A stretch of 64,000 nucleotides of DNA from Planctomycetota bacterium (GTDB lineage Bacteria > Planctomycetota > Phycisphaerae > WQYP01). The translations under genes and the position numbers were made by a program. The notes beneath the pieces are model-generated. The model had not been told where the DNA came from. It was given only the letters and a program-made list of their open reading frames with translations, and searched no databases. Below are positions 1,922 to 53,816 of the stretch, piece after piece. The stretch spans positions 80,321-144,320 of the forward strand of contig JAKBMM010000001.1 in NCBI GenBank assembly GCA_021831565.1, in the 5' to 3' direction. Each line of letters begins with the position of its first letter. The stretch's first letter is position 1.

Positions 1922-3262
1922 TTATCTTTGAAAATCGTAAATCGATCCCAGACCGATGATGCGCGTCAATTCATCCAGCGCCGTTCGGGATTCGCGCAGA
2001 AGTTGCGGGTCGGCCATATCCGCCGGATGAATCTCCGCGCGGTAATGCCTCTCGACCCATTGCACAAGGCGCCGGTAAAGCCGCGGCGAAAGCAGAACAC
2101 CCTGGTGCATGGCGGCGAGCTGCCGGGCATCTAGAACGACGCGCAACCGCAGGCATGCCGGTCCACCGCCGTTACGCATACTTTGGCGCACATCTGTAAA
2201 ATGCACCACATTCCAGACCCCGCCGGCGGTCAAATCCTCGATCAGGCGCCGCGCCGCGGCGTGGCGGCGACACTCCATCGGGGCGATCAGAGCGAAGCGG
2301 CCATCCGGCAGCGTAACCAATTGGCTGTTGAAAAAATACGTGCGCAAGGCGTCGGTCAGCGAAAGCTGTTCCGGCCCGATCTCCACCAGACGCGGCGCCT
2401 CGCCGGTTAAACGGCGGTACAGGCGTACGATATTGTTCATCGCGCGCGGTTCGTAAGCTTCGCGGTGATAAATCAACAGCGACTGGTTGCTCATCGCCAC
2501 CAGATCGTTGTGAAACGCCCCGGCGTCGATCGACCGGGGATCCCGCCCAATTGCGACAACGCAACGTGTGTTGGTTTTGTGGCGAAGCTGCACGGCCAGG
2601 CTGGCACCCAGGCTTTGCCGTGCCGGAAACCGATGCAGCCAGGGTTGTTGAACGAATGGTTCGCCGGAATCGAAAAAGAAAATCTCCAGCCCCCGCCGGC
2701 CGTGCAACGGAGCCAGACGCAGATGATTGGCGGCGCCCTCATCGCGCAGACCGATGGCCGCCGGCACGGGATCATGCACCACGAAACAATCGGCATCGTT
2801 GAAAATACGGCGCAACAGGCGCGTGGTCACCGGGGCCTCGATGCTGCGATGGAGTTGCGAAACAAGATTGGCCGGCGTGAAGTGCACGCGCCGGTCCGCC
2901 GTGTCGGCGGATGGAGAGACGGTGGCCGCATTGGCCGCCCACATCGCCGCCGCGCTGGAACAGTGGGAGAGCAGTTCTGGATCGCCACGCCAGACCTTTT
3001 CCAGAACCCGCTGATCCGATCCCTCGTAACCCAGCGCGCGCAGCAATGGCAAATAAGGCCTCTCGTGCGGCGGCAGAACCGCCTGGGGAATGCCCAATTC
3101 AATAAGCAGCCGCATTTTTTTCAATCCCTCCTGCGCTGCGCGACGCGGAAAAGACCGCCTTCCGCGGTTTCGCCGCGCGGGTATGTTTCCCCAGGCCAGA
3201 CCACCGTAGTTATGCGTTGGACCGACGATGCCGTCGAAATTCACTTCCCAGGCTTGGTTCAT
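1922..3262 (-). CDS. astB: Succinylarginine dihydrolase
   Basis: The internal start MNQAWEVNFDGIVGPTHNYGGLAWGN closely matches the AstB N-terminus. The C-terminal MRNGGGPACLRLRVVL...ADPQLLRES also matches AstB. A GGGAA Shine-Dalgarno lies 9 nt upstream, and the gene overlaps the astD stop by 4 nt (ATGA coupling). I trimmed the ORF-track start (3511) to the Met at 3262. Confidence 0.85.
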   Translation of the reverse strand: MNQAWEVNFDGIVGPTHNYGGLAWGNIPARRNRGRRSFPRRAAQEGLKKMRLLIELGIPQAVLPPHERPYLPLLRALGYEGSDQRVLEKVWRGDPELLSHCSSAAAMWAANAATVSPSADTADRRVHFTPANLVSQLHRSIEAPVTTRLLRRIFNDADCFVVHDPVPAAIGLRDEGAANHLRLAPLHGRRGLEIFFFDSGEPFVQQPWLHRFPARQSLGASLAVQLRHKTNTRCVVAIGRDPRSIDAGAFHNDLVAMSNQSLLIYHREAYEPRAMNNIVRLYRRLTGEAPRLVEIGPEQLSLTDALRTYFFNSQLVTLPDGRFALIAPMECRRHAAARRLIEDLTAGGVWNVVHFTDVRQSMRNGGGPACLRLRVVLDARQLAAMHQGVLLSPRLYRRLVQWVERHYRAEIHPADMADPQLLRESRTALDELTRIIGLGSIYDFQR

Positions 3263-4731
3263 ATCGTAATTCCCGGTAAAGGCGGCGTGGGCGTCCGCAC
3301 ACGCACGGACTCCAAGGTCGCCACCGGATAAGAACAATAATCCACCGCCCAGAAACCGCTGGGCCGATGATTTCCACTGTAGCCGACGCCGCCGAACGGC
3401 AGCGCGCCGCTGGCGCCGTTCGTAGGGCGGTTGAAGTGGAGCAATCCTGCGCGGACGCGGGCGTAAAACAGATCGAAAAGGTCCCGGCGATCGCTCAACA
3501 GAGCGGCGCAAAGGCCGAAACGGGTCTGATTCGCCTCGTCCAACCCCTGCTCAAAATCCGGCGTGCGAATCACCTGCAGGAGCGGTCCGAAAAGCTCCTC
3601 ATCGGCACGATCCGCCACGTCGGTGACATCCAAAATACCCGGCGCCAGCAGCAGACTATGGTCTGCGATACGCCGGGCGGGGGTCAACGGGCGGGCGCCG
3701 CGCGCGATAAGATCATTCTGGACAGCCAGCAGTTTCTCGACCGCCGCGGGTGTGATCACCGGTCCCATGAACGGTTCGGGTGTTTCCAACGGACCGCCGC
3801 AACGCACTCGGCCGGTCATTTCAACCAAGACGTCGATGAATCTCCGGCCGTCGGAGTTGGTGGGCACAATCAGGCGGCGGGCGCAAGTACAGCGCTGGCC
3901 CGCCGTTAAAAATGCCGACACAATGGTGTGATAGGCCGCGGCCTGCGCGTCGGCGCAATCGAACACGAGCAGCGGATTGTTTCCGCCCATTTCCAGTGCC
4001 AACAAGCGGTGGGGAAAAGGCTGATTCGCCCGCAGGATCGCCTGTCCGGCGGCAAAACTTCCGGTAAAAAAAATGGCGTCCAGACCGGGATGTTTCGCCA
4101 GAACTTCGCCAACCGATTGAGACCCTTGAACCAGGTTCATCACCCCCGGCGGCAAGCCGGCTTCCCGCCAGAGTTCGACGGTCAGTTCCGCCGTCCAGGG
4201 AGTCCTTTCGCTGGGTTTGAAAACGATGGTGTTCCCCGCCAGCAGCGCGGGCATGATGTGGCCGTTGGGCAGATGTCCGGGCATATTGAATGGTCCGAAC
4301 ACCGCCGCCACACCGTGCGGCTTGAAGCGCGTGCCTCCAACGGCGTCGGCGATTTGCCGCTGTTGGGGCGCACACCGCTGTTCAAACGCTTCCAGGGTAA
4401 GCTGCAATTTACCGATCATGGAGCTGATTTCGCCGCGGGCTTCCCACAAGGGCTTGCCGGTTTCCAGGGCGATGGCGCGGGCCAACTCTTCGCACCGCCG
4501 ATCCAGCTCGGTGGCGAATCTCGCGAGAATCCGTTGCCGCTCGAAAAAGTTTCGTCCCGCCCAGGATGGCAGCGCTTCGCGGGCGGCGAGTACCGCGGCG
4601 GAAACCTGTTCTTCATCAGCCTCCGTCCCGCGCCATAGCACGCCGCCATCCCACGGGCTAAGCGATTCAAAAATATCGCCCCGTCCCGGCGCCCAACGCC
4701 CCGCGATGAAAATGCCACGCGCGGTGCACAT
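3259..4731 (-). CDS. astD: Succinylglutamate-semialdehyde dehydrogenase (aldehyde dehydrogenase family)
   Basis: ALDH signatures are present: FTGS, ALEMGGNNP, the catalytic Cys in GQRCTCARR, and PFGGVGYSGNHR. The protein is collinear with E. coli AstD. A GGGAGA Shine-Dalgarno sits 5 nt before Met-8 (start at 4731), between astA and astB. Confidence 0.85.
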   Translation of the reverse strand: MCTARGIFIAGRWAPGRGDIFESLSPWDGGVLWRGTEADEEQVSAAVLAAREALPSWAGRNFFERQRILARFATELDRRCEELARAIALETGKPLWEARGEISSMIGKLQLTLEAFEQRCAPQQRQIADAVGGTRFKPHGVAAVFGPFNMPGHLPNGHIMPALLAGNTIVFKPSERTPWTAELTVELWREAGLPPGVMNLVQGSQSVGEVLAKHPGLDAIFFTGSFAAGQAILRANQPFPHRLLALEMGGNNPLLVFDCADAQAAAYHTIVSAFLTAGQRCTCARRLIVPTNSDGRRFIDVLVEMTGRVRCGGPLETPEPFMGPVITPAAVEKLLAVQNDLIARGARPLTPARRIADHSLLLAPGILDVTDVADRADEELFGPLLQVIRTPDFEQGLDEANQTRFGLCAALLSDRRDLFDLFYARVRAGLLHFNRPTNGASGALPFGGVGYSGNHRPSGFWAVDYCSYPVATLESVRVRTPTPPLPGITI

Positions 4732-4763
4732 AAAATTCTCCCGGTTCATCATGGGCCAGGCTC

Positions 4764-5813
4764 TCAGCTCCCTATGGTACGCCGGTCTGGCCGAACCGAC
4801 ACGAAACGAACCGCCTGGCCCGGCTCGATCCGCAAAGCCCGGGCGGTTGATGGATCGATGCAGACCCGGCCATCATCCAACACTCGCACGCCGCCCTTGC
4901 AGGCCCGAAATACCAGGTCCGTGTTCGATACCACGCAGTCCTCTCCCTGGCCAGTCCCGATAGCCATCGGGGCCAACGCCGCCACAAGCGCCTCGCGGCT
5001 TTCCCGCACCGCCCGAATTCGCGCGCGATCGCAGCCGAATACGGCGCCCGCTTCGAATATGTCGACGAGATCTTCAAAGGTAAAGCCCTCATCCTGAAGA
5101 ATTTTCAGCGCCGGCTGCGTTTCCGGATGAACTTTGCCGATCACCGCTTGTGCCGCCGCCGGCAACAGTGGTATGTACAATGGATGCTTGGGCATTAAAT
5201 CGGCGATAAAGCGTTTGTTAACCAGCGTTAAGTAATCAGCCTGGGGAAAATCAAGCTCAAAAAAATGCCGACCGACGGCATCCCAGAAGGGCGAGCGACC
5301 TTCGCGATCGATCACGCCGCGCATTTCCGCAATGACATGGGCGGCGAACCTTTGGGGAAACTGCGCCATGAAAACAAAGCGGCTCAGAGCGAGAAACCGG
5401 CCGTTGCCATCCTTGCGAAACTCCGGCAAAAGAAACAGGCTGCCGACAACCGCCGGCCCATCATGCAGCACGGTCAATTCCAGCAGTGAAATGGTCTTGT
5501 TGACCTTGAGCATTTCCGATACGCACGGTTCGCGCCGCAGACGGTATCCATAGAAGGGATCGCCCTCGCCCACCTTGGAAATAATGCCGCAAACGCCGAC
5601 AACCCGGCGGCTATCATTTTCCTGCATCACGAACAAATAGGTTTCACCACGCGGCTGGTCCGGATGGAAAGTAAAACTCTGCCGGCTTTCTTCAATTCGC
5701 CTGCTTAACACGGACCGGTTGGGCGGCAGCGTGGTCATACCATAACCAACCTGTCGGGATATCTCTAATAAGCTTTCGAGATCCGCCGTTTCAATGGGTC
5801 GAATGACAAGCAT
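4764..5813 (-). CDS. astA: Arginine N-succinyltransferase
   Basis: N-terminus MLVIRPIETADLESLLEI...GMTTLPPNRSVLSRRIEES parallels the AstA N-terminus. An AAGGA Shine-Dalgarno lies 8 nt upstream. It is the first gene of the astA-astD-astB block. Confidence 0.85.
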   Translation of the reverse strand: MLVIRPIETADLESLLEISRQVGYGMTTLPPNRSVLSRRIEESRQSFTFHPDQPRGETYLFVMQENDSRRVVGVCGIISKVGEGDPFYGYRLRREPCVSEMLKVNKTISLLELTVLHDGPAVVGSLFLLPEFRKDGNGRFLALSRFVFMAQFPQRFAAHVIAEMRGVIDREGRSPFWDAVGRHFFELDFPQADYLTLVNKRFIADLMPKHPLYIPLLPAAAQAVIGKVHPETQPALKILQDEGFTFEDLVDIFEAGAVFGCDRARIRAVRESREALVAALAPMAIGTGQGEDCVVSNTDLVFRACKGGVRVLDDGRVCIDPSTARALRIEPGQAVRFVSVRPDRRTIGS

Positions 5814-20884: not shown

Positions 20885-22438
20885 TCAGTTGTCGTATCCC
20901 TCGGCGCGCCGTGCGGCCCGATCCAGAAAAAACTGTTTGGCTTCGCCGATGAGATAGAACGATCCGGTTACCGCGACCAGATCTTCACGGGTGATGGCGC
21001 GCGCGGCTATTTCCATGGCCTCCCGGAAGTTCGCCGCCACCTGGGCCATTTTGCCAAATCGTTCCACGTAAACGGCGGAAAGCTCTTCCGGTGGAACACA
21101 TTTGGGATTGTTATGCGCTCGGGTAAAAATAACCTTGTCCGCTCCGAGCGACACCTGTTCGAGTATTCCGTCGATGTCCTTGTCGCTGTTGCAGCCGAAG
21201 ATAACCACCATGCTGTCATACGGAATGTACTGGCTGATACCCCGAAACAACGCCTGGATGGAGGCGGCGTTGTGGGCGCCGTCGATGATCACACGCGGAT
21301 CGCGCCACACCAGTTCAAGCCGCCCGGACAAATCCACGCGCTGCAGGCCGGCGACGGCCTGGGCGTCATCGAAGCGCAATCCCCGGGTCTTGAGTTTATC
21401 GAGCATGGCCAGCGCCAAACCGCAGTTGATCGCCTGATGTTCGCCGATCAGTGGAACCATCAAATGTTCAAACCGCGACCGCGCCGTGGCCAGCGATACG
21501 CGCACGTGCGGTCCCTGCGCACGGGTGACTTCAAAGCGATGGCTGAATTCAATGTCCCGACCGACAAACTCCAGCGGTGCGTGCACCCGCCGCGCCGCTG
21601 TTTCCAGAACGGCCTGAACCTCCGGCGGTTGAAGGCAGGAGAGCGCCGGCACATTTTGCTTGAAGATGCCGGCCTTTTCCGCGGCAATTTTCGCCAGGGT
21701 ATTGCCCAAAACCGACGCATGATCCATGCTGATGCTGGTGATGGCGGTGACTTCCGGCATAATGACATTGGTTGAATCCAGCCGGCCACCCAGGCCGGTT
21801 TCAATTACAGCGATGTCCGCACGCTGCTGGGCAAAGTAACAAAATCCGATGGCGGTGAATATTTCAAAGAAAGTCGGATGATCATATCGCATTTTGGCCA
21901 GAGCGGCTTCGACCCGCCGTACCAGGCGAATCACGTCGCCCTGTGAAATCATCTGGCCGTTGATCCGAATACGCTCGCGAATATCAATCAGATGGGGACT
22001 GGTATACAGCCCCACTTTGAATCCGGCGCTTTGGAGCATGCTGGCAAGCATGTGGCAGGTGCTGCCTTTGCCCTTGGTCCCGGCCACGTGCGCGGTCTTG
22101 AACTGCAGGTGCGGATCACCCAACAACTTGAGCAGCCGGCGCATCCGGTCCAAGTCAAACGTGGTGGTGTTGTAGCGGACGATGCGCATCCGCTCATAAT
22201 CTGTTTGTTGACGAAGAAATTCCAGGGCCTGTTGATACGCGCGATTCTCCCGTCTTGACCGCTCCGCCGCCTGGTGTTGACCCCGGTGTTCTGGAACTGG
22301 TTGGCGATGGCCGTTGGCGCCGGCGCGTCTGGTTTTTTTCAATTTAAGATGACGTTTTTTTTCAACGGCATGGCGATCGGCGGTTCGCCCATCTTTGCCG
22401 CGGAGTTTGGTTTTTTTGGATTTTCCGGATACAACCAT
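20885..22438 (-). CDS. folC: Bifunctional folylpolyglutamate synthase / dihydrofolate synthase (Mur ligase family)
   Basis: P-loop AHVAGTKGKGST, Mur-ligase middle and C domains, collinear with E. coli FolC. There is no internal ATG before the conserved core, so the ORF implies a K/R-rich N-terminal extension of about 55 aa. Confidence 0.8.
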   Translation of the reverse strand: MVVSGKSKKTKLRGKDGRTADRHAVEKKRHLKLKKTRRAGANGHRQPVPEHRGQHQAAERSRRENRAYQQALEFLRQQTDYERMRIVRYNTTTFDLDRMRRLLKLLGDPHLQFKTAHVAGTKGKGSTCHMLASMLQSAGFKVGLYTSPHLIDIRERIRINGQMISQGDVIRLVRRVEAALAKMRYDHPTFFEIFTAIGFCYFAQQRADIAVIETGLGGRLDSTNVIMPEVTAITSISMDHASVLGNTLAKIAAEKAGIFKQNVPALSCLQPPEVQAVLETAARRVHAPLEFVGRDIEFSHRFEVTRAQGPHVRVSLATARSRFEHLMVPLIGEHQAINCGLALAMLDKLKTRGLRFDDAQAVAGLQRVDLSGRLELVWRDPRVIIDGAHNAASIQALFRGISQYIPYDSMVVIFGCNSDKDIDGILEQVSLGADKVIFTRAHNNPKCVPPEELSAVYVERFGKMAQVAANFREAMEIAARAITREDLVAVTGSFYLIGEAKQFFLDRAARRAEGYDN

Positions 22439-22600
22439 AGACTATTTATACTAACATTTTCTCAAACAATCTGCAAATGACCTGCGCGCCGGTTGTGGCG
22501 TTTCAAAAGAAATGTCAGGGGTTAACGTTTCAATAGAATTGTCTGTAGCGCCGGCTTGTTGATGGTTGCGGCGAATCTTATGATGGCGGGTCAGGAAAGT

Positions 22601-22662
22601 ACCTAGGATTGCGGTTTAGAACCTATCTCGAAAGATAGCCGGAGCCGCAATCTCTTTTGTTA
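22601..22662. promoter_or_regulatory. Nested inverted repeats in the folC/dxr divergent intergenic region
   Basis: GGATTGCGG...CCGCAATC(t)C outer arms. Inner perfect hairpin ATCTcgaaAGAT. A second pair TAGAACCTAT...ATAGGTTCT ends 10 nt before the dxr start. Confidence 0.35.
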
Positions 22663-22671
22663 TAGGTTCTT

Positions 22672-23874
22672 ATGAGCACCCCCGGTTCCGGTGAACCCCA
22701 GGCAAGAAAAAGCAAAGAACCTCGCCGCATGGCACTGCTCGGCAGCACGGGTTCCATTGGCGTTGGCACGTTGGAGGTGATCCGGCACCTGGACGGCGAG
22801 TTTGAAATTACCGCCTTGGCCGCCTCCCAAAACTGGCGAAAACTCGCTCAGCAGGCGCTGGAATATCGACCCCGTGTGGTGGTGCTCAGCCAGCCGGCAA
22901 GCAAACACGATGCGGCCGCGCTCGAACACGCCTTGCGCGGCCGGCGTATTGAGGTTCGCACCGGGCCGGCGGCGATGGAAGAAGTAGCCGCGCGTGATGA
23001 TGTGGATATTGTGGCGGTGGCGGTAGTGGGCGCGGCCGGACTCAAACCGGCGCTGGCGGCGGCGCGTGCGGGTAAATGGATCGCCTTGTCCAACAAGGAA
23101 TCGCTGGTGGTGGCCGGCGGGGTGGTCATGCCGTTGGCGCGCCGGTATGGCGCCAAGATTTTGCCGGTGGATTCCGAGCATTCCGCCATTTTTCAGGCCT
23201 TACGCTGCGGCCGGCAAAAGGAAATCCGGCGGATTATCCTTACGGCCAGCGGCGGCCCTTTTCGCACCTGGCCGCGGGAAAGAATGAATCGAGCCACCGT
23301 CGCGGAGGCTCTGGACCATCCGAACTGGCGAATGGGTCCGAAAATCACCGTTGATTCGGCCACACTAATGAATAAAGCGCTGGAAATTATTGAGGCGCAC
23401 TGGCTTTTCGATCTGCCAGCCGAACGAATTGACGTGCTTATCCATCCCCAGTCCATTATTCACAGCATGATCGAATTCGTGGATGCCAGCATCATCGCCC
23501 AGCTTGGCGCACCGGACATGCGCACGGCGATTCAATATGCGTTGACCCATCCGCACCGCAGCCAAAGCTGCAGCCGACGGGTGGATTGGTCGAAGATACA
23601 GGAAATGACCTTCGAGGAACCGAAAGACCATTTTCCCGCTCTGGCTCTGGGTTACGAGGTGGTTCGCCGCGGTGGAACCAGTGGCGCCGTGCTCAACGCG
23701 GCCAACGAAACGGCCAATGCCCTGTTTCGGGAAGGTAAAATACCGTTCGGGCGGATTGTTCGGCAAGCCGCGCGAGTGTTGGAAAAGCATCTCCAGAGCG
23801 GTTTTATCGCCCAGCCGACGCTTGCCGATCTGCTGGCGGCTGATGCCTGGGCGCGGCGTGAGGCGATGCCATGA
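22672..23874 (+). CDS. dxr: 1-deoxy-D-xylulose 5-phosphate reductoisomerase
   Basis: MALLGSTGSIGVGTLEV NADPH-binding N-terminus and the conserved LANKESLV / SEHSAIFQ motifs. An alternative start exists at Met-20 (22729). Confidence 0.9.
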   Translation: MSTPGSGEPQARKSKEPRRMALLGSTGSIGVGTLEVIRHLDGEFEITALAASQNWRKLAQQALEYRPRVVVLSQPASKHDAAALEHALRGRRIEVRTGPAAMEEVAARDDVDIVAVAVVGAAGLKPALAAARAGKWIALSNKESLVVAGGVVMPLARRYGAKILPVDSEHSAIFQALRCGRQKEIRRIILTASGGPFRTWPRERMNRATVAEALDHPNWRMGPKITVDSATLMNKALEIIEAHWLFDLPAERIDVLIHPQSIIHSMIEFVDASIIAQLGAPDMRTAIQYALTHPHRSQSCSRRVDWSKIQEMTFEEPKDHFPALALGYEVVRRGGTSGAVLNAANETANALFREGKIPFGRIVRQAARVLEKHLQSGFIAQPTLADLLAADAWARREAMP

Positions 23875-25997
23875 AAACAGGTGGTGATATGCATACGGCG
23901 GCACAGCTCAGACGTCATCTGACAATGGGCCGGACAATTCTACTGACAATGGGACTGCCCCTGTTTGTGGGCGCTTCTCTTCTGGGGGTGATGGACAGCG
24001 TGCGTAAATCTCTGCTGCTGCTGGTGGGATTCGGTTCGGTGATTTTTTTCCATGAACTGGGGCATTTTCTGGCCGCTAAATCGTTCGGTATCCGTTGCGA
24101 TGTGTTTTCCCTGGGGATTGGACCGCGGCTCTGCGGCTGGAGAAGGGGCGTGGGGTTTGCCTTTGGGGCTGTGCCGATTGGACCACGCAACGAAAGTGAA
24201 CAAGAAAGTGAACAAGAAAAAATTCCGGCGACCGGAGGGAAGAAAAAAATCGGGGAAACAGACTATCGGCTGGCCTGGCTGCCGTTTGGCGGCTATGTGC
24301 GAATGCTCGGCCAGGATGACCTGGATCCGAGCAAGGCCAGCGCCGATCCGGCGTCGTTTGGGAAAAAGCCGATCTGGCAGCGGATGGTGGTGATTTCCGC
24401 CGGTGTGGTTATGAATTTGATTTTTGCCGTGATTCTTTTCGCGGCGATTTTCCGCATGGGTGTGAAGTTCCCGCCGGCGGTGGTCGGATCAGTAGCCTAT
24501 AACAGCCCCGCGCAAAAGGCCGGCCTGCACGCCGGCGACCGTATTATTTCCATCGATCACCACAAACCACGCGGATTTCTGGAATTCACGGACTTGGGTG
24601 TCGCCGCGGCGCTGGACAGCCCCGGCCGGCCGGTACGTTTGCAATACGTCCGTCCAGGAAGCGCCCGGACGCACAGCGTTCGACTGATTCCAGTGAATAA
24701 TCCCGATACCGGCCTGCTGGCGTTCGGTATCAGCGAGGCGCCCCGGTTGAAAATTCCCCAATTCACTCCCGCGGGTTTGAAAACTTTCGTCAGGGAAAAC
24801 CCCGAATTCAAAGGGCTTGTTCCCGGTGCGAAAATTGTTTCGGTCAACGGAGTAAAAATTCGCAGTTGGGCCGGCCTTCATCAGATGATTGAGCGCTCCG
24901 GTGGCAAGTCGTTGCGGGTCAAGCTGGTGCGGCCGGTCCCACCGGTGCGGACAGCGACACTGGTTCTCCCGGCGCACCTGACCTTGCGCGACTGGGTTAA
25001 TCAAACACCGGACATCCTGGGGATGCATCCCCTGACGAAAATCGCCGAGGTTCTTCCCGGAGGCGCGGCGGCCGCGGCGGGCGTCAAAAAAAATGATCTG
25101 GTTGTGCGGTTGGGAACTCTGGCCTACCCGACCATTCACCAGTTCATAAAACTGATAGAATCGAGCGCCGGCAAGCCGCTGGCCATGATTGTTCTTCGCG
25201 GCGGCAAACAAACAAAGTTATTCGTTAAACCGAAAATATCCTCCTGGTCCATTTTTTCAACGCCCCCTCGAATCGGTGTCGCCTTGACGCCCTGTTTTGA
25301 CCGGGCAATCGTCGGCCAAGTAAATAAACGGGCGCTCCAGGCCGGCGTCAAACCCGGCCAGATGCTGGTGGGAATTGCCCTGGGGTCGCACGCGACCAAA
25401 GTATTGCCCATTGGCAGTTGGGGCCAACTGGTTAATGATCTGGGAGGATACGACGGAAAGACGGTGGTTTTACATTTCGCAAACCGGGGCGCTCCAGTGA
25501 CTACCGCGTTTACCTCCGCCGAGAAACTGGGCTTGCGCCAATTCCAGTATCAAATCGGATTGCCGCTGGAACCGCTGCTGGAACTCCAGCGAAGCCGCTC
25601 CCTGGTGGGAGCGGCGATCATGGGAATCGATCACACCTGGCGGTGGATTGTCCGTACGTACCTGACACTGCGGGGACTGGGCGTGGGAACCATTTCACCG
25701 CATCAACTTCACAGCGTCATTGGAATCGCCAAGGTGGGATATGAATTTGAGAGCCGGGGTTTTACCTATCTCTTGTATTTTCTGGGACTTATTTCAGTTA
25801 ATCTGGCGGTCATCAATTTTCTGCCGTTGCCGATTCTGGACGGCGGATTGTTTGTTCTTCTGATTGTCGAAAAGTTCCGCGGAAAACCGCTTTCGGTACG
25901 CGTGCAGACGGCGATTCAGGTGGCGGGAATCGCCTTGATTGGCGCTTTATTTTTGTATATCACCATTTTCAACGATCTGCCGACACTTTTTAAATAA
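23871..25997 (+). CDS. rseP: Regulated intramembrane zinc metalloprotease (site-2 protease, M50) with PDZ domains
   Basis: HELGHFLAAKSFGI HExxH motif in TM1, multiple PDZ-like segments, and the C-terminal LDGG motif (NFLPLPILDGGLFV). ATGA overlap with dxr, which matches the conserved dxr-rseP synteny. Confidence 0.85.
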   Translation: MKTGGDMHTAAQLRRHLTMGRTILLTMGLPLFVGASLLGVMDSVRKSLLLLVGFGSVIFFHELGHFLAAKSFGIRCDVFSLGIGPRLCGWRRGVGFAFGAVPIGPRNESEQESEQEKIPATGGKKKIGETDYRLAWLPFGGYVRMLGQDDLDPSKASADPASFGKKPIWQRMVVISAGVVMNLIFAVILFAAIFRMGVKFPPAVVGSVAYNSPAQKAGLHAGDRIISIDHHKPRGFLEFTDLGVAAALDSPGRPVRLQYVRPGSARTHSVRLIPVNNPDTGLLAFGISEAPRLKIPQFTPAGLKTFVRENPEFKGLVPGAKIVSVNGVKIRSWAGLHQMIERSGGKSLRVKLVRPVPPVRTATLVLPAHLTLRDWVNQTPDILGMHPLTKIAEVLPGGAAAAAGVKKNDLVVRLGTLAYPTIHQFIKLIESSAGKPLAMIVLRGGKQTKLFVKPKISSWSIFSTPPRIGVALTPCFDRAIVGQVNKRALQAGVKPGQMLVGIALGSHATKVLPIGSWGQLVNDLGGYDGKTVVLHFANRGAPVTTAFTSAEKLGLRQFQYQIGLPLEPLLELQRSRSLVGAAIMGIDHTWRWIVRTYLTLRGLGVGTISPHQLHSVIGIAKVGYEFESRGFTYLLYFLGLISVNLAVINFLPLPILDGGLFVLLIVEKFRGKPLSVRVQTAIQVAGIALIGALFLYITIFNDLPTLFK

Positions 25998-26294
25998 GCC
26001 TCTCCCTCCATCCTGCCTCCGACGGCGCGTGGATAAGAGTGTCGCTTACGTTCTTACGTTCTTACGTTACACCGACGCATGGTTGCTTCGCCGGAGGTTA
26101 CGGAAGAGTTAAATCCGCGGACGCGTGTCGCAAGGCGACGCCGCAAAACCGAATGTGAATAGCATGCGAATATACGCGGCACAAGGGGCGGATAAGAACC
26201 GCCTATGAACCCATGCCGCTCCGGATAATTCTGGGGTACATAGTCCCCTACTGATTCTCCGTGTCCTCGCGCCATACCCGCTCTCTTGATATTT

Positions 26295-27374
26295 TTACTC
26301 CCAGTAATAGTTTCCATCATAATAATTACAATGCAAATTAGACGGGCCTTTCCACTCCACCGATCCGTCGTTATACAGAATATTCGCCCCCCGCGCGCCA
26401 CCCTGGCCCATGTGGTTGGATATGGGATAAGGTCCTGGCGAAAAAGAGGGGCCAAATCCCCAGTATGGCTTCGTCGCATTAGTAATCGTAAGATCGCTGC
26501 CCAAAATAGAATCAACCGAGCGATGGATATTGTTCTCCGATGTGAACGGATGCTGCGGATCAGGAAGATAGGTGCTTGCCGTCAGGCCCGTCCAGGGATT
26601 GGTTACATTTATGGTTGTGGATCCCGGAACCGCTCCTGTTCCTGACGGATTGGAAAACGAGCTCTGGGAAAATCCAAACCAGTAATTGTAGCTGAAGAAG
26701 ATGGCCTGTAGAAAAGCCGAACCATGCGCCGAAGTAAGGGTAGCTTGCCAAGCCGTAGGCTGTTCAAACCCATTGGCCACCCAGGTGTTGGGGTGAGTTA
26801 GATATGGCATCGGAATCCACGACATGGGAAAGGTTCGAGCTTCTTGCCCACCAGCATTGATTGGGCCGCCAACCAGACTGGTATTCCCATCAAGCGTGAA
26901 ATAACTCGACTGCGGGCAGAAAAAGACCGCCGGATTCTTGATGATGCCGGTGGTATACAACATGCCAAAACCAAATGGATAACCACCATAGTTATTCATC
27001 CCGCCACCGCCGCCGCTGCCGCTGGAGTTCATATTGCCGAACGGACCAAGGGCCTCGTGTATATATCCCCCCCCGTGATCCGCCGGAGTCCATCCCGCCG
27101 GATAAGGATAGTTTTTGTATGAAGCGTCATACTCGGCCACCCCCTGCCCGAGCGACTTCAAATTCGAAGAGCAGATCACCTGGTATGCCAGGTTTTTAGC
27201 CTTGGCCAGCGCGGGCAGCAACAGCGAGATCAGAATGGCGATGATCGAAATGACCACCAGCAGTTCAATGAGCGTGAATCCCGAGAGCCAGCGGGATCGG
27301 TTTTGGGGCTGGCGTCCGCGCCGGTCAATCGTATTGCCAGCGGATTCCTGCGTGTTGGTTGTGCGCGGCAGCAT
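26295..27374 (-). CDS. Prepilin-type N-terminal cleavage/methylation domain protein, DUF1559 (H-X9-DG) family, copy A
   Basis: [29 protein letters not shown] class-III signal / pseudopilin helix. C-terminal [21 protein letters not shown]9-DG motif. Strong AAGGAG Shine-Dalgarno. Gly-rich central insert. Confidence 0.8.
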
Positions 27375-28768
27375 GATAAGAACTCCTTCTTTACACTACT
27401 ATTGTCACAATATATCACCCTTTCTTACTGGGCGTCAAGTCAATTGCGGATTTTTTTTCTCACGAAATGGTACGGCTCGTCCGATATCCCCGACTTCTCG
27501 CCGTTCCGAGACAAATACCTAAACTCTTGCGCTCGTGAAGTTGTTACTCCCAGTAGTAGTTTCCATCATAATAATTACAATGCAAATTAGACGGGCCTTT
27601 CCACTCCACCGAGCCGTCGTTATATAGAATATTCGCCCCCCGCGCGCCACCTTGGCCCATATGGTTGGATATGGGATATGGTCCCGGCGTACCCAAACCA
27701 GCGCCGAATCCCCAGTACGGCTTTGTCGCATTAGTGATTGTAAGGTCGCTGCCCAAAATAGAATCAACCGAGCGATGAATATTGTTCTCCGATGTGAACG
27801 GATGCTGCGGATCCGGAAGATAGGTGCTTGTCGTCAGGCCCGTCCAAGGATTGGTTACATTTATGGTTGTGGATCCCGGAACCGCTCCTGTTCCTGACGG
27901 ATTGGAAAACGAGCTCTGTGAAAACCCAAACCAATAATTGTAGCTGAAATAGATAGCCTGTAAAAACGACGAACCATGCGCCGAAGTAAGGGTAGCTTGC
28001 CAGGCCGTAGGTTGTTCAAACCCATTGGCCACCCAGGTGTTGGGGTGGGTTAGATACGGCATCGGAATCCATGACATGGGAAAGGTTCGAGCTTCTTGCC
28101 CACCAGCATTGATTGGGCCGCCAACCAGACTGGTATTCCCATCAAGCGTGAAATAACTCGACTGCGGACAAAAAAAGACCGCCGGATTCTTGATGATGCC
28201 GGTGCTGTACAGCATGAAAAAACCAAATCCATAACCACCATAGGCATTCATCCCGCCACCGCCACCAGTCCCGCTCGAGTCCATACTGCCGAACGGAGCA
28301 CAGGCCTCGTGTATATACCCTCCCCCGTGATCCGCCGGACACCATCCCCCCGGGTAAGGATAGTTTTTGTATGAAGCGTTATACTCGGCCACCCCCTGCC
28401 CGAGCGACTTCAAATTCGAAGAGCAGATCACCTGGTATGCCAGATTTTTCGCCTTGGCCAGCGCGGGCAGCAACAGCGAGATCAGAATGGCGATGATCGA
28501 AATGACCACCAGCAGTTCAATGAGCGTGAATCCCGAGAGCCAACGGGATCGTTTATGGTACCTACTTCCCCGCCGGTCAATCGTATTGTTGGCGGATTCC
28601 TGCATGTTGGTTGTGCGCGTCAGCATGATAAGAACTCCTTCTCTTTACTACTATTGCCACAATGTATCACCCTTTCTTACTGGGCGTCAAGTCAATTGCG
28701 GATTTTTTTCCTCACGAATATGGTACGGCTCGTCCGATATCCCCGACTTCTCGCCGTTGCGGGAGACA
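26296..28768. repeat. Tandem direct duplication (two units of about 1.22 kb) comprising the DUF1559 gene plus its 5' UTR and promoter
   Basis: Unit 1 is about 26296-27515 and unit 2 about 27543-28768. Near-identical nucleotide stretches were visible by eye, including TACTCCCAGTA(A/G)TAGTTTCCATCATAATAATTACAATGCAAATTAGACGGGCC and the upstream TTCTTACTGGGCGTCAAGTCAATTGCGGATTTTTTT. Confidence 0.8.
27544..28626 (-). CDS. Prepilin-type N-terminal cleavage/methylation domain protein, DUF1559 (H-X9-DG) family, copy B
   Basis: About 90% identical to copy A over the whole length, with the same N-terminal pseudopilin helix and H-X9-DG C-terminus. Confidence 0.8.
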   Translation of the reverse strand: MLTRTTNMQESANNTIDRRGSRYHKRSRWLSGFTLIELLVVISIIAILISLLLPALAKAKNLAYQVICSSNLKSLGQGVAEYNASYKNYPYPGGWCPADHGGGYIHEACAPFGSMDSSGTGGGGGMNAYGGYGFGFFMLYSTGIIKNPAVFFCPQSSYFTLDGNTSLVGGPINAGGQEARTFPMSWIPMPYLTHPNTWVANGFEQPTAWQATLTSAHGSSFLQAIYFSYNYWFGFSQSSFSNPSGTGAVPGSTTINVTNPWTGLTTSTYLPDPQHPFTSENNIHRSVDSILGSDLTITNATKPYWGFGAGLGTPGPYPISNHMGQGGARGANILYNDGSVEWKGPSNLHCNYYDGNYYWE

Positions 28769-28959
28769 AAATCATGGCGCCCTTGTAATTTATGAAAAAG
28801 GTGTTAAGTTTTTCTTTCAAGAGGTACCGGGCGGAACGTTCCGCGGAACGGGGAGTATCCGAAGGCGCGGCGATTCAGCCGGATTTTGTGGTTATTTTTA
28901 CGACCGTCGCGGACGGAAAAGGGGGTATCATGATCCTTCCATACAATTGGAAAGAAAAA

Positions 28960-29454
28960 ATGAATTTTTCCAACATTCGCCAGGCGATTAACAAGAATGC
29001 GGCTGTGGCGGGCATCATTGCGGCGGTCGTTATTATTGTGATGATAGCGTATCTTATCCGGCAAATGGGTCCGCCAGCCTTTAAACCGGGGGGGGCTTAT
29101 TATTTCAATACCGCCCCGGGCAGGCATTACGGCGATATCAGCATTCATTCCGCCGCCAAATATCCGCCTTTGATCGACCCCAAGACAGGTAAGCCAACCC
29201 TTGTCTTGGCCATGTTCTATACCTGCGGAAGCTGCAAGAACAAAAAGCTGGTATATCTGCAGAAATACACCAGACAGGCTAAAGCCCTGATAAAGGAAAA
29301 AGGCTCCCGCGCCCTGCTGAAGATGGGCATTGCCGGTTTGGTGGTTCGTAAGCCGGCGAAAGGATCGCGGTGGTATCCATTGAACAGTCCGCAGGGACAA
29401 CGCATCACCACCCCGCCGAAATGCGCCAAATTGAAGCCATGTGTCCCTGGATAA
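28960..29454 (+). CDS. Hypothetical small single-pass membrane protein with Cys-containing C-terminal domain
   Basis: The ORF frame spans 28792-29454. The likely start is MNFSNIRQAINKNAAVAGIIAAVVIIVMIAYLI (one TM helix), or MILPY at 28930. The C-terminal region contains CGSCKN ... CAKLKPC. No homolog recognised. Confidence 0.4.
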   Translation: MNFSNIRQAINKNAAVAGIIAAVVIIVMIAYLIRQMGPPAFKPGGAYYFNTAPGRHYGDISIHSAAKYPPLIDPKTGKPTLVLAMFYTCGSCKNKKLVYLQKYTRQAKALIKEKGSRALLKMGIAGLVVRKPAKGSRWYPLNSPQGQRITTPPKCAKLKPCVPG

Positions 29455-29496
29455 AAATGATCCCTCCGCTGTTCTCCAAAGAGGTTAACGAGGTCG

Positions 29497-30690
29497 ATGT
29501 CTTTTGCGCCGATCGATGAAGTGCTCGCGGCGCTGCGGCGCGGGAAAATGGTGGTGCTGGTTGACGATGAAGACCGCGAAAATGAGGGAGACCTGGTTTG
29601 CAGCGCGGAGTTTGTCACACCGGAAATCGTCAATTTCATGTTGCGCGAGGCGCGGGGGGTTTTATGCGTGGCGCTGACCCCGGAAAATTGCCGGCGGCTG
29701 GAACTCTATCCCCAAGCCACCTATAACACCGCGCCGCTGGGAACCGCCTTTACCGTAAGCGTCGACGCCCACCCGCGTTTTGGCATCACCACGGGCGTAT
29801 CCGCCCGCGAGCGGGCCGCAACCATTCAGGTTCTCATTGATCCGAAATCCACACCGAATGACCTGTGCCGTCCCGGGCACGTCAATCCGCTGCAGGCCCG
29901 ACCCGGCGGTACGCTGGAACGCGCCGGTCAAACCGAAGGATCGGTCGATCTGGCGCGGTTGGCCGGGCTTTATCCCGCCGCTGTCATTATTGAAATCATG
30001 GCTGCGGACGGCAGCATGGCCCGCCTCCCGCAGTTGCGGGATTTCTGCCGGCGGCGCCATCTGCCCCTTTGCTCCATCGCCCAGGTGATTCAGCACCGGC
30101 TGCAACGCGAGGCACTGGTGCGGCGGGTGGACTTCATGCCGATCCACACTACATACGGAAAATTTGATCTTGTTGTCTACGAAACCGTGCAGGACCCTCT
30201 TTTGCACGTGGCGTTGTGCTGCGGAGGCGTGGGCCGGCTGGATCCTGTTTCCGGAAAGCCGCTCGGGCATGAGGAACCGGTGCTGGTCCGGGTTCACTCG
30301 GAGCATCTGCTGGGCGATGTGTTCCAGGCGGATTTCACCGCAAGCGGGCGCGAACTCCAGAACTCATTGCGAATGATTCACAAACAGGGAAAAGGAGCCG
30401 TTGTGTACCTTCGGCAGGAATCGCGCGGCCTGGCCCTTTTAGGCAGGCTGCAAGATCTTAAAACGCGAGATCGGCGAACCGCGCCGCTTGGGCCACAACC
30501 AACTGGTCCCATGCGCAAGTCCCATCGTGCGGCGATGACGCGACGGGATATCGGCATCGGCGCGCAGATTCTACGTGACCTGGGGCTGACCCGGTTGATT
30601 CTGTTGACCAATCGGCCTAAGAAACTTCATGGCCTGGATGGGTTTGGGCTATCGGTCGCCGAACAGCGGCCTATTCCTACCGCGATCTAA
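29497..30690 (+). CDS. ribBA: 3,4-dihydroxy-2-butanone 4-phosphate synthase fused to a GTP cyclohydrolase II-like domain
   Basis: The RibB half shows LVDDEDRENEGDLV and conserved DHBP synthase motifs. The C-terminal half aligns to RibA (PVLVRVHSE...RQE.RG..LL...GIGAQILRDLG..LLTN.PKK), but the zinc-ligand Cys positions are replaced (see findings). Confidence 0.8.
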   Translation: MSFAPIDEVLAALRRGKMVVLVDDEDRENEGDLVCSAEFVTPEIVNFMLREARGVLCVALTPENCRRLELYPQATYNTAPLGTAFTVSVDAHPRFGITTGVSARERAATIQVLIDPKSTPNDLCRPGHVNPLQARPGGTLERAGQTEGSVDLARLAGLYPAAVIIEIMAADGSMARLPQLRDFCRRRHLPLCSIAQVIQHRLQREALVRRVDFMPIHTTYGKFDLVVYETVQDPLLHVALCCGGVGRLDPVSGKPLGHEEPVLVRVHSEHLLGDVFQADFTASGRELQNSLRMIHKQGKGAVVYLRQESRGLALLGRLQDLKTRDRRTAPLGPQPTGPMRKSHRAAMTRRDIGIGAQILRDLGLTRLILLTNRPKKLHGLDGFGLSVAEQRPIPTAI

Positions 30691-30709
30691 CGCCGGGTTT
30701 TTCGGCGAC

Positions 30710-44716: not shown

Positions 44717-45010
44717 TTACGGTTCCACGCCCACCACCACCAGCGGCACGGCCGGCGTGCCGCGGCCCTGGCGCAGAAGATCGTAGAGGCCCCCTTCGTA
44801 GTAACCGACGCCGGATGACATCCGGGATTGCAGGGATTTCATGGGCAGAATCTCGATGCCCACGTCGATCACGTCACCGACAAAAAAGGCCATGTGCTTG
44901 ACGAACATGTCGTATGCGACAAACGCATACTTGCCAAACTGTATTTCGAGCGCAATTCGATCTTTGACGAAATCAGTTTGATTGTACGAATACATCGCCT
45001 GAATTTTCAT
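44717..45010 (-). CDS. Small hypothetical protein downstream of, and overlapping, the DNA methyltransferase (possible restriction endonuclease remnant)
   Basis: 97-aa ORF. Its ATG overlaps the methyltransferase stop (ATGA). GC is about 50% versus a flank of about 65%. It contains D...EIQFGK and DVIDVGIEILPMK segments that loosely resemble PD-(D/E)xK strands, which is not conclusive. Confidence 0.35.
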   Translation of the reverse strand: MKIQAMYSYNQTDFVKDRIALEIQFGKYAFVAYDMFVKHMAFFVGDVIDVGIEILPMKSLQSRMSSGVGYYEGGLYDLLRQGRGTPAVPLVVVGVEP

Positions 45011-45954
45011 CGATGACCACCGTTCGGCAGTGTAGGATCGTAAACGGGGCGTTCCATGGGACGGGTTTGCAGCACACCGGTCCGGTAGTCCGCAATACGG
45101 GCGCGGGCAATCTTTACATATTTCTCTTCGATATCACAGCCATAACCGTCGCGATTGTTCTTAATCGCGGCGATAACGGCGGAACCGACACCCATGTAGG
45201 GGTCGAAAACACCATCCCCGGCGCGCGTCATGGAGAGGACAAGCCGTTCAACAAGCTCCACGGGAAATTGGCAGGGATGAATCGTCTTTTCAACGTGGTT
45301 GGCTTTTACATTTGGAATAACCCACACGTCGCCGGGATTTTTCCCCAGCGGATTGCACGAGAACATACCGGCTTTGGGGCCTTTGAAGTATTTCTTTCCG
45401 GGGTATTTTGGTGGGATACGGATCGGGTCAACATCGAAGACAAACTGGTCGGACTTGGTAAACCACAGGATCGTTTCGTAACGTCCCGAAAAACGCCGCG
45501 TGCAATGCAGGCCGTGTTCGAAATGCCATATAATGCGGTTCCGTAGTTTCATTCCAAGCTTTTTGAAAATCGGGTGGAACATGATGTCCAGCGGGACCAC
45601 CTCGCCGTCGATGGTGATATGGTTGCCAACCTGCCAACAAATCGATCCCGCCGGTTTGAGCAGACGTACACAGTGGCTTATCACCCGTTCCTGTGTTTCG
45701 AGATAACAAGTCAGTGAATCCCGCCGCTCGTATTCTTTACCGATGTTGTAGGGGGGAGAGGTGACGATCAACTGGAAGCTCTGATCCGGAAATTTCGCCA
45801 TGAACTCGAGGTTGTCGGCACACGCAACAGCGTGCTTGCCGACACCGGAACCTAAGCTATTCCGTTTGATTTCGCCGATCGGAAAAAGCGTCTGGCCGAT
45901 CATGATGGATACCCCGAGTTCCAAAAGCCAGTGGTTAATATACCCGAATCTCAC
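45007..45954 (-). CDS. Beta-class DNA methyltransferase (SPPY motif IV preceding FxGxG motif I; probably N4-cytosine or N6-adenine specific)
   Basis: LIVTSPPYNIGKEY (motif IV) lies N-terminal to VFDPYMGVGSAVIAA (motif I), which is the circular permutation of beta-class amino-MTases. SPPY rather than DPPY favours N4-cytosine. Locally low GC. Confidence 0.8.
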   Translation of the reverse strand: MRFGYINHWLLELGVSIMIGQTLFPIGEIKRNSLGSGVGKHAVACADNLEFMAKFPDQSFQLIVTSPPYNIGKEYERRDSLTCYLETQERVISHCVRLLKPAGSICWQVGNHITIDGEVVPLDIMFHPIFKKLGMKLRNRIIWHFEHGLHCTRRFSGRYETILWFTKSDQFVFDVDPIRIPPKYPGKKYFKGPKAGMFSCNPLGKNPGDVWVIPNVKANHVEKTIHPCQFPVELVERLVLSMTRAGDGVFDPYMGVGSAVIAAIKNNRDGYGCDIEEKYVKIARARIADYRTGVLQTRPMERPVYDPTLPNGGHR

Positions 45955-53360: not shown

Positions 53361-53816
53361 CTTAAACGACTATGCACTTGGCCCGGCCCGTGTTTTTGCA
53401 AGGGCCGGGCTGCGGGGAAAGAGAGTAGAAAGTTGGTAACCGTTCACGCACCGGATGTTTTTGGCGCACGTCCCGGCGGGCATGGGTTTTCCCGGTGTGC
53501 CGGGACCGCCAATCACCGCGCCGCCCCAGTCACGCAGCCGAGTGGTGGAATCCCGCGGCCGTTTTGCGTCCACCTTCGGGCGGCTTTTCACGGTCGTGGA
53601 TGGTAATAGAGCGGTGGTTGGATTACGAGGCATGATGGTTTGCGGTTACGGACGGCCGTGGATTTCCATCCACGGCTGCGGGGGGGGGCGACCATGGGGC
53701 AGCCGCGAGGATCGCAATCCCGCGGCCGTTTTCCGCGCCGCCGTGAACGGTTACGGAGAAACAACAATGGCTCCTACAGTACGGCTCGGAACGAGCCTTT
53801 CTCAATAGATATACTA

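Follow-up and report, generated by a model that had tools for sequence, protein, structure and literature searches.

A tandem pair of prepilin-type genes at the periphery of the DUF1559 family in a Planctomycetota bacterium

Two adjacent genes on the minus strand of a 64,000-nt stretch of DNA, hereafter the window, from an uncultured Planctomycetota bacterium near the Phycisphaerae are very probably ordinary tandem paralogues that encode pilin-like proteins at the periphery of the DUF1559 family, were duplicated together with their promoter, and have both been kept by selection. A first-pass annotation of this DNA had proposed that a prepilin-type gene was duplicated in tandem along with its promoter region and ribosome-binding site, and alignment of the two units, in which both open reading frames are intact, indicated that this duplication is genuine. 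The locus is an ordinary gene-family expansion. The genes, designated copy A and copy B, and the sequences that adjoin them are as follows.

26295..27374, minus strand: copy A, a 359-aa prepilin-type protein (ORF and translation)
27067..27074, minus strand: G8 run (C8 on the plus strand) in the copy A coding sequence, codons H100-G103 (homopolymer list and unit alignment)
27375..27511, minus strand: copy A upstream region inside the repeat (unit alignment)
27512..27543, minus strand: junction at which the 3' end of unit B meets the 5' end of unit A, with only weak similarity to either outer flank (alignments)
27544..28626, minus strand: copy B, a 360-aa paralogue of copy A (ORF and translation, BLASTP)
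28627..28764, minus strand: copy B upstream region inside the repeat (repeat block and unit alignment)

The repeat units are direct and lie head to tail with a period of about 1.25 kb, and they are 92% identical in both DNA and protein. A repeat search of the window returned three collinear blocks of direct repeat, spaced 1249-1253 nt apart and 93-96% identical, and comparison of one unit with the other by blastn gave 92.3% identity across 1227 nt (88 mismatches, 4 gaps). This similarity is far above chance. The two copies of about 90% identity described earlier were thus recovered at 92%, while the unit size given with them, about 1.22 kb, was replaced by the longer period; the approximately 140 bp of upstream sequence assigned to each unit agreed with the unit alignment, in which homology extends for about 137 nt.

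The copy A and copy B proteins are 92% identical by BLASTP. Copy A has a 32-residue leader, the cleavage motif G32/F33TLIE and a C-terminal SNH-x8 motif, and the residues RWLSG before the predicted cleavage point are common to both copies. Copy B has two extra cysteines (C96 and C109), and its loop at residues 309-313 is longer by one residue. The amino acid differences cluster in a Gly-rich loop, and the claim that a Gly-rich insert differs between the copies was borne out by the BLASTP comparison, in which copy B carries SMDSSGTGGGGGMNAYGGYGFGFF. In the unit alignment the G8 run of copy A is broken in copy B (GGGGGAGGG), and no frameshifted variants of copy A were found among the 15 cluster members listed. 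Identical copy A protein is encoded on at least 16 public contigs, and identical copy B protein on 15.

By sequence, both proteins are type IV pilin-like (pseudopilin-like). Each copy has the class III signal arrangement of Gly at -1, Phe at +1 and Glu at +5 ahead of a hydrophobic helix of about 20 residues, and FTLIELLVV stands directly after the 32-residue leader. The prepilin signal scored 23.9 bits against PF07963 (N_methyl; cut-off 21.2) and 25.8 bits against TIGR02532 (cut-off 16.3). Sequence matches to solved pilins (GspG, PilA and geopilin; E 1e-8 to 1e-12) covered the N-terminal helix only. The proteins share the class III signal peptide and alpha-1 helix with GspG/PulG and PilA, and the alpha-beta loop of GspG and PilA is the counterpart of the region that varies between the copies; however, the mature protein is about 327 residues long here and 130-150 in those pilins, and the leader has 32 residues rather than 6-8. 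Identity with GspG was rejected, since the TIGR01710 scores of 32.2 and 32.8 bits covered the N-terminal 60 residues only and fell far below the equivalog cut-off of 88.85, and the neighbours are RseP, Dxr and RibBA rather than a gsp operon.

The globular domain of about 270 residues lies, on profile and motif comparison, at the periphery of the planctomycete DUF1559 or 'H-X9-DG' family. Copy A reached 17.9 bits against PF07596, over residues 67-101 only and below the gathering threshold of 23.3 bits, and copy B had no match at E <=0.01; 8 of the 21 subfamily members matched PF07596. Alignment of the subfamily with PF07596-bearing proteins by hhalign gave a probability of 100% and E 2.2e-61 over 259 columns, including the C-terminal motif, for an alignment of PF07596-bearing proteins (A4) drawn from matches to the same query as the subfamily alignment (A3). 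In both copies the C-terminal motif is H-X14-DG and not the H-X9-DG of TIGR04294, and the canonical nine-residue spacing is present in P0071 (NPHEGGANVLYADG). The NCBIfam scan returned no TIGR04294 match even at E 10, and no family at all on the C-terminal 130 residues. Identical proteins are named 'prepilin-type ... H-X9-DG protein' by JGI/IMG. The DUF1559 (H-X9-DG) assignment of the first-pass annotation consequently stood as profile-profile homology to DUF1559-bearing proteins, but not at the Pfam cut-off or in the spacing of the motif.

Other likenesses to DUF1559 (PF07596, SBP_bac_10) are the leader, the G/FTL(I/V)E motif, the hydrophobic helix, a conserved Cys-x2-N-L, a C-terminal SNH...G-x-N-x-L-Y-x-DGSV-x-W strand, occurrence in the same phylum, and genes that stand as orphans away from secretion operons; the differences are the His-to-DG spacing of 14 rather than 9 and the scores under the Pfam gathering cut-off. 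The subfamily is small, as only 7 clusters at 50% identity reached E 1e-30 among 1.84 billion representatives. A peptide-pattern scan of the genome collection with copy A matched 53 stretches, none of which encoded a relative. AlphaFold2 (AF2) prediction gave a pLDDT of 75.8 with 114 sequences and 52.6, which is unusable, with 21, and a Foldseek search of the predicted structure against the PDB returned nothing significant. DUF1559 is the largest planctomycete paralogue family, with 68-74 copies per genome and unknown function (PMC10632474, PMC2754498), and the literature that mentions DUF1559 gave no function for it.

The flanking genes encode RseP, Dxr and RibBA. Among about 20 long ORFs outside the centre and the central 21 kb of the window, examined up to about 50.7 kb, there were no pilus or type II secretion genes and no prepilin peptidase (peptidase A24), and no other GFTLIE-type gene was present in the window. 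Because neither machinery nor a peptidase gene was found nearby, processing and assembly are read from the signal motif only. Rfam and tRNA scans placed nothing in or beside the repeat, the nearest tRNA (Ala) being 2 kb away. The depressed local GC noted earlier (about 50%) was confirmed, with 51-52% measured at 26-29 kb and 54-64% elsewhere in the window. GC3 of the copies is 0.59-0.60, compared with 0.62-0.67 in neighbouring genes, and the low GC comes mostly from amino acid composition and non-coding DNA. With GC3 close to normal, the low GC was not taken as decisive for a foreign origin.

Between copy A and copy B, dS is 0.21, dN 0.044 and omega 0.21. By region, omega is 0.76 in the leader and 0.49 at residues 83-142 and is otherwise zero or close to it, and no region had dN/dS above 1 between the copies. 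Both copies are under purifying selection, and the description of the family as rapidly evolving was contradicted by these values. Synonymous divergence is uneven, at 0.05 for residues 33-82 and up to 0.27 in some regions, and the upstream regions have diverged by only about 7%. Since the dS between this organism and its sister species is 0.17-0.21, equal to that between the copies, the duplication is not very recent and is about as old as the species; the inter-copy dS is also about 200 times the variation among assemblies of the same population. The word 'recent' in the earlier account was therefore supported in part.

The two-copy locus was present in at least six independent public assemblies, namely L001-L005, which are 99.9-100% identical over 3 kb, and L014. 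The two-copy contigs are 25-165 kb long and come from JGI, ENA and NCBI; two further contigs begin within copy B and continue into copy A, and 23 of the 24 contigs of the first look-up had the canonical two-copy gene neighbourhood. That the duplication is absent and two strain alleles were misplaced in tandem by assembly would fit three MAG contigs with one gene at the site, yet the order B-junction-A recurs in L001-L005 and L014 from independent sources, and assemblers do not make 8%-diverged copies with a specific junction. Because the two-copy order recurs in this way, the duplication is not an assembly artefact, and we consider that explanation exceedingly improbable. The assemblies also contain variants of the pair. 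Copy B of the 165-kb contig L014 carries three A-type sites at coding positions 325-329, between B-type sites at 309 and 341, and further short mosaic patches occur in L006 and L013. In L010, L011 and L012 a single hybrid gene, B-type in its 5' part and A-type in its 3' part, is bordered by the same genes as the pair; in both L010 and L012 the switch falls in the interval 624-658, which has only 33 nt of identity. It is possible, though rather unlikely, that the copies are actively exchanging by gene conversion and unequal crossover in a population with mosaic and one-copy hybrid alleles. The L014 patch, at most 31 nt long, cannot be an assembler chimera, and the other patches, the hybrids, the unevenly low dS of the 5' part and the slight upstream divergence point the same way. 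Against active exchange, the L010 flanks match the window at 100% identity over 10.5 kb, which would require several independent deletions to have risen to dominance in a population that is otherwise clonal; the hybrid contigs L011-L013 are no longer than 2.6-3.2 kb, and short-read assemblers are known to collapse repeats this similar; and the first look-up was almost uniformly canonical. The mosaic and hybrid genes may represent real gene conversion or unequal crossover, or collapse in short-read assembly. Gene conversion among pilin paralogues has its extreme case in pilE/pilS of Neisseria. The present locus resembles that system in its two adjacent copies of high identity and in the mosaic variants in public assemblies, but both copies here are complete, have predicted promoters and are under purifying selection, silent cassettes and a known recombination-initiating element are absent, and some of the mosaic evidence may be an assembly artefact. 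It is improbable that the mosaic and hybrid alleles are real and that the pair serves as a small module which diversifies a surface-exposed pilin-like protein by recombination in a natural and otherwise clonal population; such a module would shuffle variable loop segments and change copy number, and would give a first hint of selective pressure on the enigmatic DUF1559 family.

The upstream regions of the two copies contain the following elements, all on the minus strand.

27383-27388: copy A Shine-Dalgarno AAGGAG (unit alignment)
27409-27414: copy A predicted -10 box TATATT with TG extension (promoter scan)
27433-27438: copy A predicted -35 box TTGACG (promoter scan)
27451-27458: copy A T8 tract, A8 on the gene strand (homopolymer list)
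28635-28640: copy B Shine-Dalgarno AAGGAG (unit alignment)
28661-28666: copy B predicted -10 box TACATT (promoter scan)
28685-28690: copy B predicted -35 box TTGACG (promoter scan)
28703-28709: copy B T7 tract (homopolymer list)

The AAGGAG Shine-Dalgarno attributed to each unit was found 8 nt ahead of the ATG in both. The predicted promoters are sigma-70-like, TTGACG-18-TATATT in copy A and TTGACG-18-TACATT in copy B, with the tract upstream of the promoter; the copy A prediction has 10/12 matches to consensus, and promoters of this phylum are poorly characterised. Transcription is predicted to begin near 27402 for copy A and near 28654 for copy B. The terminator scan found no convincing intrinsic terminator between the copies or after copy A. 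The first-pass annotation had placed a homopolymer of differing length about 65 nt upstream of the start and had suggested a slipped-strand expression switch. The tract actually lies 77-84 nt upstream of the ATG, and T8/T7 reflects an A/G substitution at the edge of the tract (GAG-A8-TCC versus GAGG-A7-TCC on the gene strand) with no change in total length in the unit alignment, so the supposed length polymorphism is a base substitution. The sole genuine 1-nt indel is located 6 nt upstream of the tract (CCAT-TTCG versus CCATATTCG). A frequent change of tract length that switches each copy on or off would fit the presence of a 7-8 nt homopolymer of unequal length in the promoter region of both copies. 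However, the substitution leaves the total length unchanged; by the promoter prediction the tract is 12 nt upstream of the -35 box, outside the -35/-10 spacer; and population-level variation in length was absent, with A8 in 8/8 copy-A and G-A7 in 9/9 copy-B promoters from 11 assemblies, these 17 promoter copies being assembly consensus sequences that include one strain with 0.9% flank divergence. The tract is also unexceptional, because the window contains 27 A/T runs of at least 7 nt and 8 runs of 8 nt, such as A8 at 25086 and T8 at 22355. Tracts of 7-8 A/T are at or below the length of appreciable instability. Phase-variable homopolymer promoters, such as those of Neisseria porA/opc and Bordetella fim, likewise have a homopolymer in the promoter region of a surface-protein gene, but their tracts are long (usually at least 9 nt), occupy the -35/-10 spacer or the interval from an activator site to the -10 box, and vary in length among cells, whereas the tract here has 7-8 nt, is upstream of the predicted -35 box and is constant in the 17 promoter copies. 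A slipped-strand switch is thus unsupported and very unlikely, and the tract and -10 differences make no reversible switch. On consensus prediction, the A8/A7 tract would occupy a position like that of an UP-element enhancer, and the point substitutions in the tract and in the -10 box may give the copies somewhat different fixed promoter strengths.

A sister species was found by a genome-collection scan with the neighbouring RseP protein, and blastn of its contig (L015) against the window delimited one further feature.

26030..28775, no strand assigned: 2746-nt segment with both genes and 265 nt past the copy A stop (blastn of the window versus L015)

The sister contig aligned to 22551-26029 at 93.3% and to 28776-30691 at 89.4%, and has only about 27 nt in place of the segment; the site is likewise empty in L033, a second contig of the sister lineage. 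One reading is that the 2.75-kb segment was inserted after the sister split, by transfer or transposition of a paralogue, and underwent immediate duplication; the other is that the segment is ancestral and the sister has lost it. The empty site in two sister-lineage contigs, a GC below the surroundings and the closest homologues (55-63% identity) in unrelated genomic contexts favor insertion. On the other hand, the inter-copy dS, even at its overall value, is at least as high as that between the species, which fits a pair that the common ancestor already had and the sister has deleted; GC3 is close to normal, and neither mobile-element features nor a target-site duplication were seen at the segment boundaries. 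In outgroups Dxr-RseP is conserved and RibBA is not adjacent, and because synteny is lost downstream of RseP, the outgroups give no polarity for insertion or loss. We regard insertion after the split as quite possible, while leaning slightly against it.

The reading of the pair as ordinary tandem paralogues suggests the following course. The precursor would be inserted in the inner membrane, and a prepilin peptidase encoded elsewhere in the genome would cleave it after G32 and N-methylate it, so that the predicted mature N-terminus is N-methyl-Phe33. The mature protein, predicted in each case to have a long N-terminal helix and the globular domain, would then enter a fibre via a type IV pilus or type II secretion-like machine, or be retained as a membrane-anchored periplasmic or surface protein. 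The unit of promoter, ribosome-binding site and coding sequence would have been duplicated head to tail roughly at the sister-species split, and both copies would since have been kept by purifying selection, with replacements concentrated in the cleaved leader and in loops matching the variable alpha-beta loop of pilins. In this scheme the copies have probably also undergone occasional gene conversion.

Tandem duplication is the expected route of growth for a DUF1559-type family and carries little weight alone. What is useful here is largely negative: a real duplication whose age is about that of the species, two copies under purifying selection, and a homopolymer that is no switch. Hints of inter-copy gene conversion in public assemblies are of modest value, as is the locus itself, in which an expansion of the family is dated and a sister species has the site empty.

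The region was found to be a head-to-tail direct repeat, in which a repeat search identified three collinear blocks of 300, 161 and 45 nt, with spacings of 1252, 1249 and 1253 nt and 93-96% identity. The two units were 92.3% identical over 1227 nt by blastn, and each contained a single complete minus-strand ORF, preceded by AAGGAG 8 nt 5' of the ATG. The encoded proteins were 92% identical. Homology between the units extended from ~137 nt upstream of each ATG to within ~20 nt past each stop codon, where similarity faded. The repeat search, the blastn alignment and the two intact ORFs confirmed the tandem duplication described in the first-pass annotation.

Features of the window
1922-5813, minus strand: AstB, aldehyde dehydrogenase and AstA, an arginine succinyltransferase pathway cluster
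26295-27374, minus strand: copy A, ORF of 359 aa
27451-27458, plus-strand reading: T8 tract of copy A
27512-27543: junction between the units, 32 nt
27544-28626, minus strand: copy B, ORF of 360 aa
28703-28709, plus-strand reading: T7 tract of copy B
45007-45954, minus strand: N6/N4 DNA methylase gene, in a local GC dip (52%)

The exact copy-A protein was present on at least 24 contigs. Public contigs L001-L005 were 99.9-100% identical to the window across the whole 3-kb region, and the 165-kb contig L014 had the same two-copy arrangement. Two-copy contigs came from JGI, ENA and NCBI sources and were 25-165 kb long. Because the structure recurred in independent contigs, we concluded that it is real, which removed the concern that it was an assembly artefact.

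The 90% cluster included mosaic sequences. Copy B of L014 carried three A-type sites within 5 nt (CDS 325-329), with the nearest B-type sites at distances of 16 and 12 nt. The patch is so short that it is not a k-mer or assembler chimera, and it looks like a short gene-conversion tract. Further mosaic patches were found in contigs L006 and L013, and short A-in-B or B-in-A patches occurred across public assemblies of this same population. Contigs L010, L011 and L012 each carried one hybrid gene, 5' B-type and 3' A-type, with three different junction sets. Such one-copy hybrids could reflect real unequal crossover or assembly collapse. The flanks of L010 matched the window at 100% identity for 10.5 kb and hybrid contigs L011-L013 were short, which favours collapse; we consider collapse the more probable explanation and a real crossover the less probable one.

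Both copies matched models of the prepilin-type N-terminal cleavage/methylation motif, PF07963 (23.9 bits, cut-off 21.2) and TIGR02532 (25.8 bits, cut-off 16.3), with a 32-residue leader and the residues G(-1), F(+1) and E(+5). Every equivalog model for pilins or pseudopilins matched the first ~60 residues only and scored far under its cut-off, and likeness to GspG, PilA and geopilins (PDB sequences) was confined to the alpha-1 helix. The AF2 model, computed from 114 sequences (pLDDT 75.8), comprised a helix at residues 35-86, a mixed middle and a confident C-terminal beta-sheet.

The pair had been assigned to DUF1559 with an H-X9-DG motif. The DUF1559 model PF07596 scored copy A at 17.9 bits, under its cut-off of 23.3, and did not match copy B in the Pfam profile search. 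When the 21 closest full-length relatives were compared with PF07596-bearing proteins (hhalign of alignments), a match of 100% probability (E 2e-61) was obtained over 259 columns that take in the C-terminal strand motif, and 8 of the 21 matched PF07596 individually. Identical sequences bear the JGI/IMG label 'prepilin-type ... H-X9-DG protein'. The C-terminal motif of copies A and B is H-X14-DG, whereas P0071, a canonical member, has a shorter His-to-DG spacing (H-EGGANVLYA-DG). The claimed relatedness to DUF1559 was upheld, the Pfam cut-off was missed and the spacing differed; profile comparison places both copies as peripheral relatives, not members by curated criteria. A search of 1.84 billion cluster representatives returned 191,922 at E ≤1e-3, mostly via the N-terminus, and only 7 at E ≤1e-30, so the subfamily is small. 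The nearest homologues (55-63% identity) were single genes in unrelated contexts. The homologue P0006 (58% identical; contig L007, 186-1268; MAG GCA_027429195.1) has an in-frame stop that splits it into products of 261 and 75 aa, possibly a pseudogene or a sequencing error.

Expression switching by slippage at a T7/T8 tract ~65 nt upstream of the start had also been proposed. Measured from the start codons, the tracts are 77-84 nt upstream; on the gene strand they read CGTGAG-AAAAAAAA-TCCGC in copy A and CGTGAGG-AAAAAAA-TCCGC in copy B. Since the total length of both tract regions is equal, the copies differ by an A/G substitution at the edge of the tract, not by slippage. The sole nearby indel, of 1 nt, lies 6 nt further upstream (CCAT-TTCG vs CCATATTCG). 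A consensus scan predicted a near-consensus sigma-70-type promoter in both units, with TTGACG, an 18-nt spacer with a TG extension and TATATT in copy A, and TACATT as the -10 box in copy B. The tract is 12 nt upstream of the predicted -35 hexamer, at roughly -49 to -56, where UP-element-like A-tracts sit. A one-base change at such a position leaves the -35/-10 spacing unaltered. The window held 27 A/T runs of at least 7 nt, including eight runs of 8. Tract length was constant across public assemblies in all eight copy-A and all nine copy-B promoters. The edge substitution, the position upstream of the predicted -35 and the invariant lengths argue against a promoter length polymorphism or slipped-strand switch.

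The copy A CDS contains a G8 run (gene strand, window 27067-27074, codons H100-G103) that is interrupted in copy B (GGGGGAGGG). As a slippage candidate, this coding tract would rank above the promoter T-tract; the 15 cluster members listed included no copy-A variant with a frameshift. The longest G/C homopolymers in the window were C9 at 18213 and G9 at 53680.

Between copies, dS was 0.21, dN 0.044 and dN/dS 0.21 (Nei-Gojobori). Replacements were concentrated in the cleaved leader (omega 0.76), in residues 83-142 including the Gly-rich loop (omega 0.49), and in a third cluster at residues 301-316; elsewhere dN was zero or near zero. Omega exceeded 1 in no region, so both copies are held by purifying selection, and the description of a rapidly evolving family does not apply to them overall. 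The variable segments fall in low-confidence loops of the AF2 model. At the positions of T and L in copy A, copy B has two extra cysteines, C96 and C109, which could form an additional loop disulfide; in the L014 variant of copy B, residues 109-110 are back to A type and C96 is left unpaired. Divergence was unevenly low in the 5' part, where dS was 0.05 across residues 33-82, and it was only ~7% in the 136 nt upstream. Constraint or past gene conversion would fit this pattern, and the dS heterogeneity was only marginally significant by a rough chi-square estimate.

One flank of the pair encodes the housekeeping proteins RseP, Dxr, FolC-like, XerC/D-like, Ffh and IspG; the other encodes an unknown 170-220 aa protein, then RibBA, epimerase, XseA, L11, NusG and SecE. 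The window ORFs that were examined (~20 long ORFs outside the centre, plus the central 21 kb) included no pilus or secretion genes. The first gene beyond copy B (28792-29454, plus strand) is divergent, lacks a Pfam match and has a G8 run at 29088; a 170-aa sister-lineage call and conservation suggest a true start at the ATG near 28931, not 28792. GC was 51-52% at the repeat vs 54-64% elsewhere in the window. Because GC3 of the copies (0.59-0.60) is near that of neighbouring genes (0.62-0.67), the dip is attributable to amino-acid composition and non-coding DNA, not clearly to foreign DNA.

An RseP-based genome scan identified a sister species, 'Planctomycetota bacterium DBS1-1.bin115' (L015; RseP 94% identical); further RseP relatives (~50% identity) were titled Phycisphaerae or Phycisphaerales. 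In L015, and likewise in L033, an independent contig of the same lineage, the small unknown gene and RibBA come immediately after RseP. There, ~27 nt (L015 4275-4303) stand in place of window 26030-28775, leaving the sister lineage without the two genes and the 265-nt 3' flank. This lineage-specific segment, between the RseP and copy A stops, contains a small tandem repeat, CGTTCTTA (~3 copies, 26046-26073), and no terminator was predicted for these convergent gene ends. Between the window and L015, dS was 0.17 for Dxr, 0.20 for RseP and 0.21 for RibBA. The between-copy dS matches these values, which places the duplication, on synonymous divergence, at about the age of the species split. The options are loss of an ancestral pair from the sister, or arrival in the window lineage followed almost at once by duplication; outgroups lacked downstream synteny and gave no verdict between the two.

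The duplication as first observed stands, its interpretation stands in part, and phase variation is not supported. Each copy is probably transcribed from its own predicted promoter; with no terminator predicted between the two genes, transcription of B could run on into A. A prepilin peptidase from another locus is predicted to cut the precursor after G32, and the mature protein would either join a fibre of the type IV pilus or T2SS-like kind or be membrane-anchored via its N-terminal helix. The paralogues differ mainly in exposed loops, and point substitutions also separate their -10 boxes and the edges of their A-tracts. They are thus likely to be two constitutively distinct isoforms that differ slightly, not a switch. 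DUF1559 proteins outnumber every other paralogue group in Planctopirus limnophila (68 copies, 2 essential; PMC10632474) and in Rhodopirellula baltica (74 copies; PMC2754498). Copies A and B add a new prepilin-like pair to a DUF1559-related planctomycete family that grows by tandem duplication.
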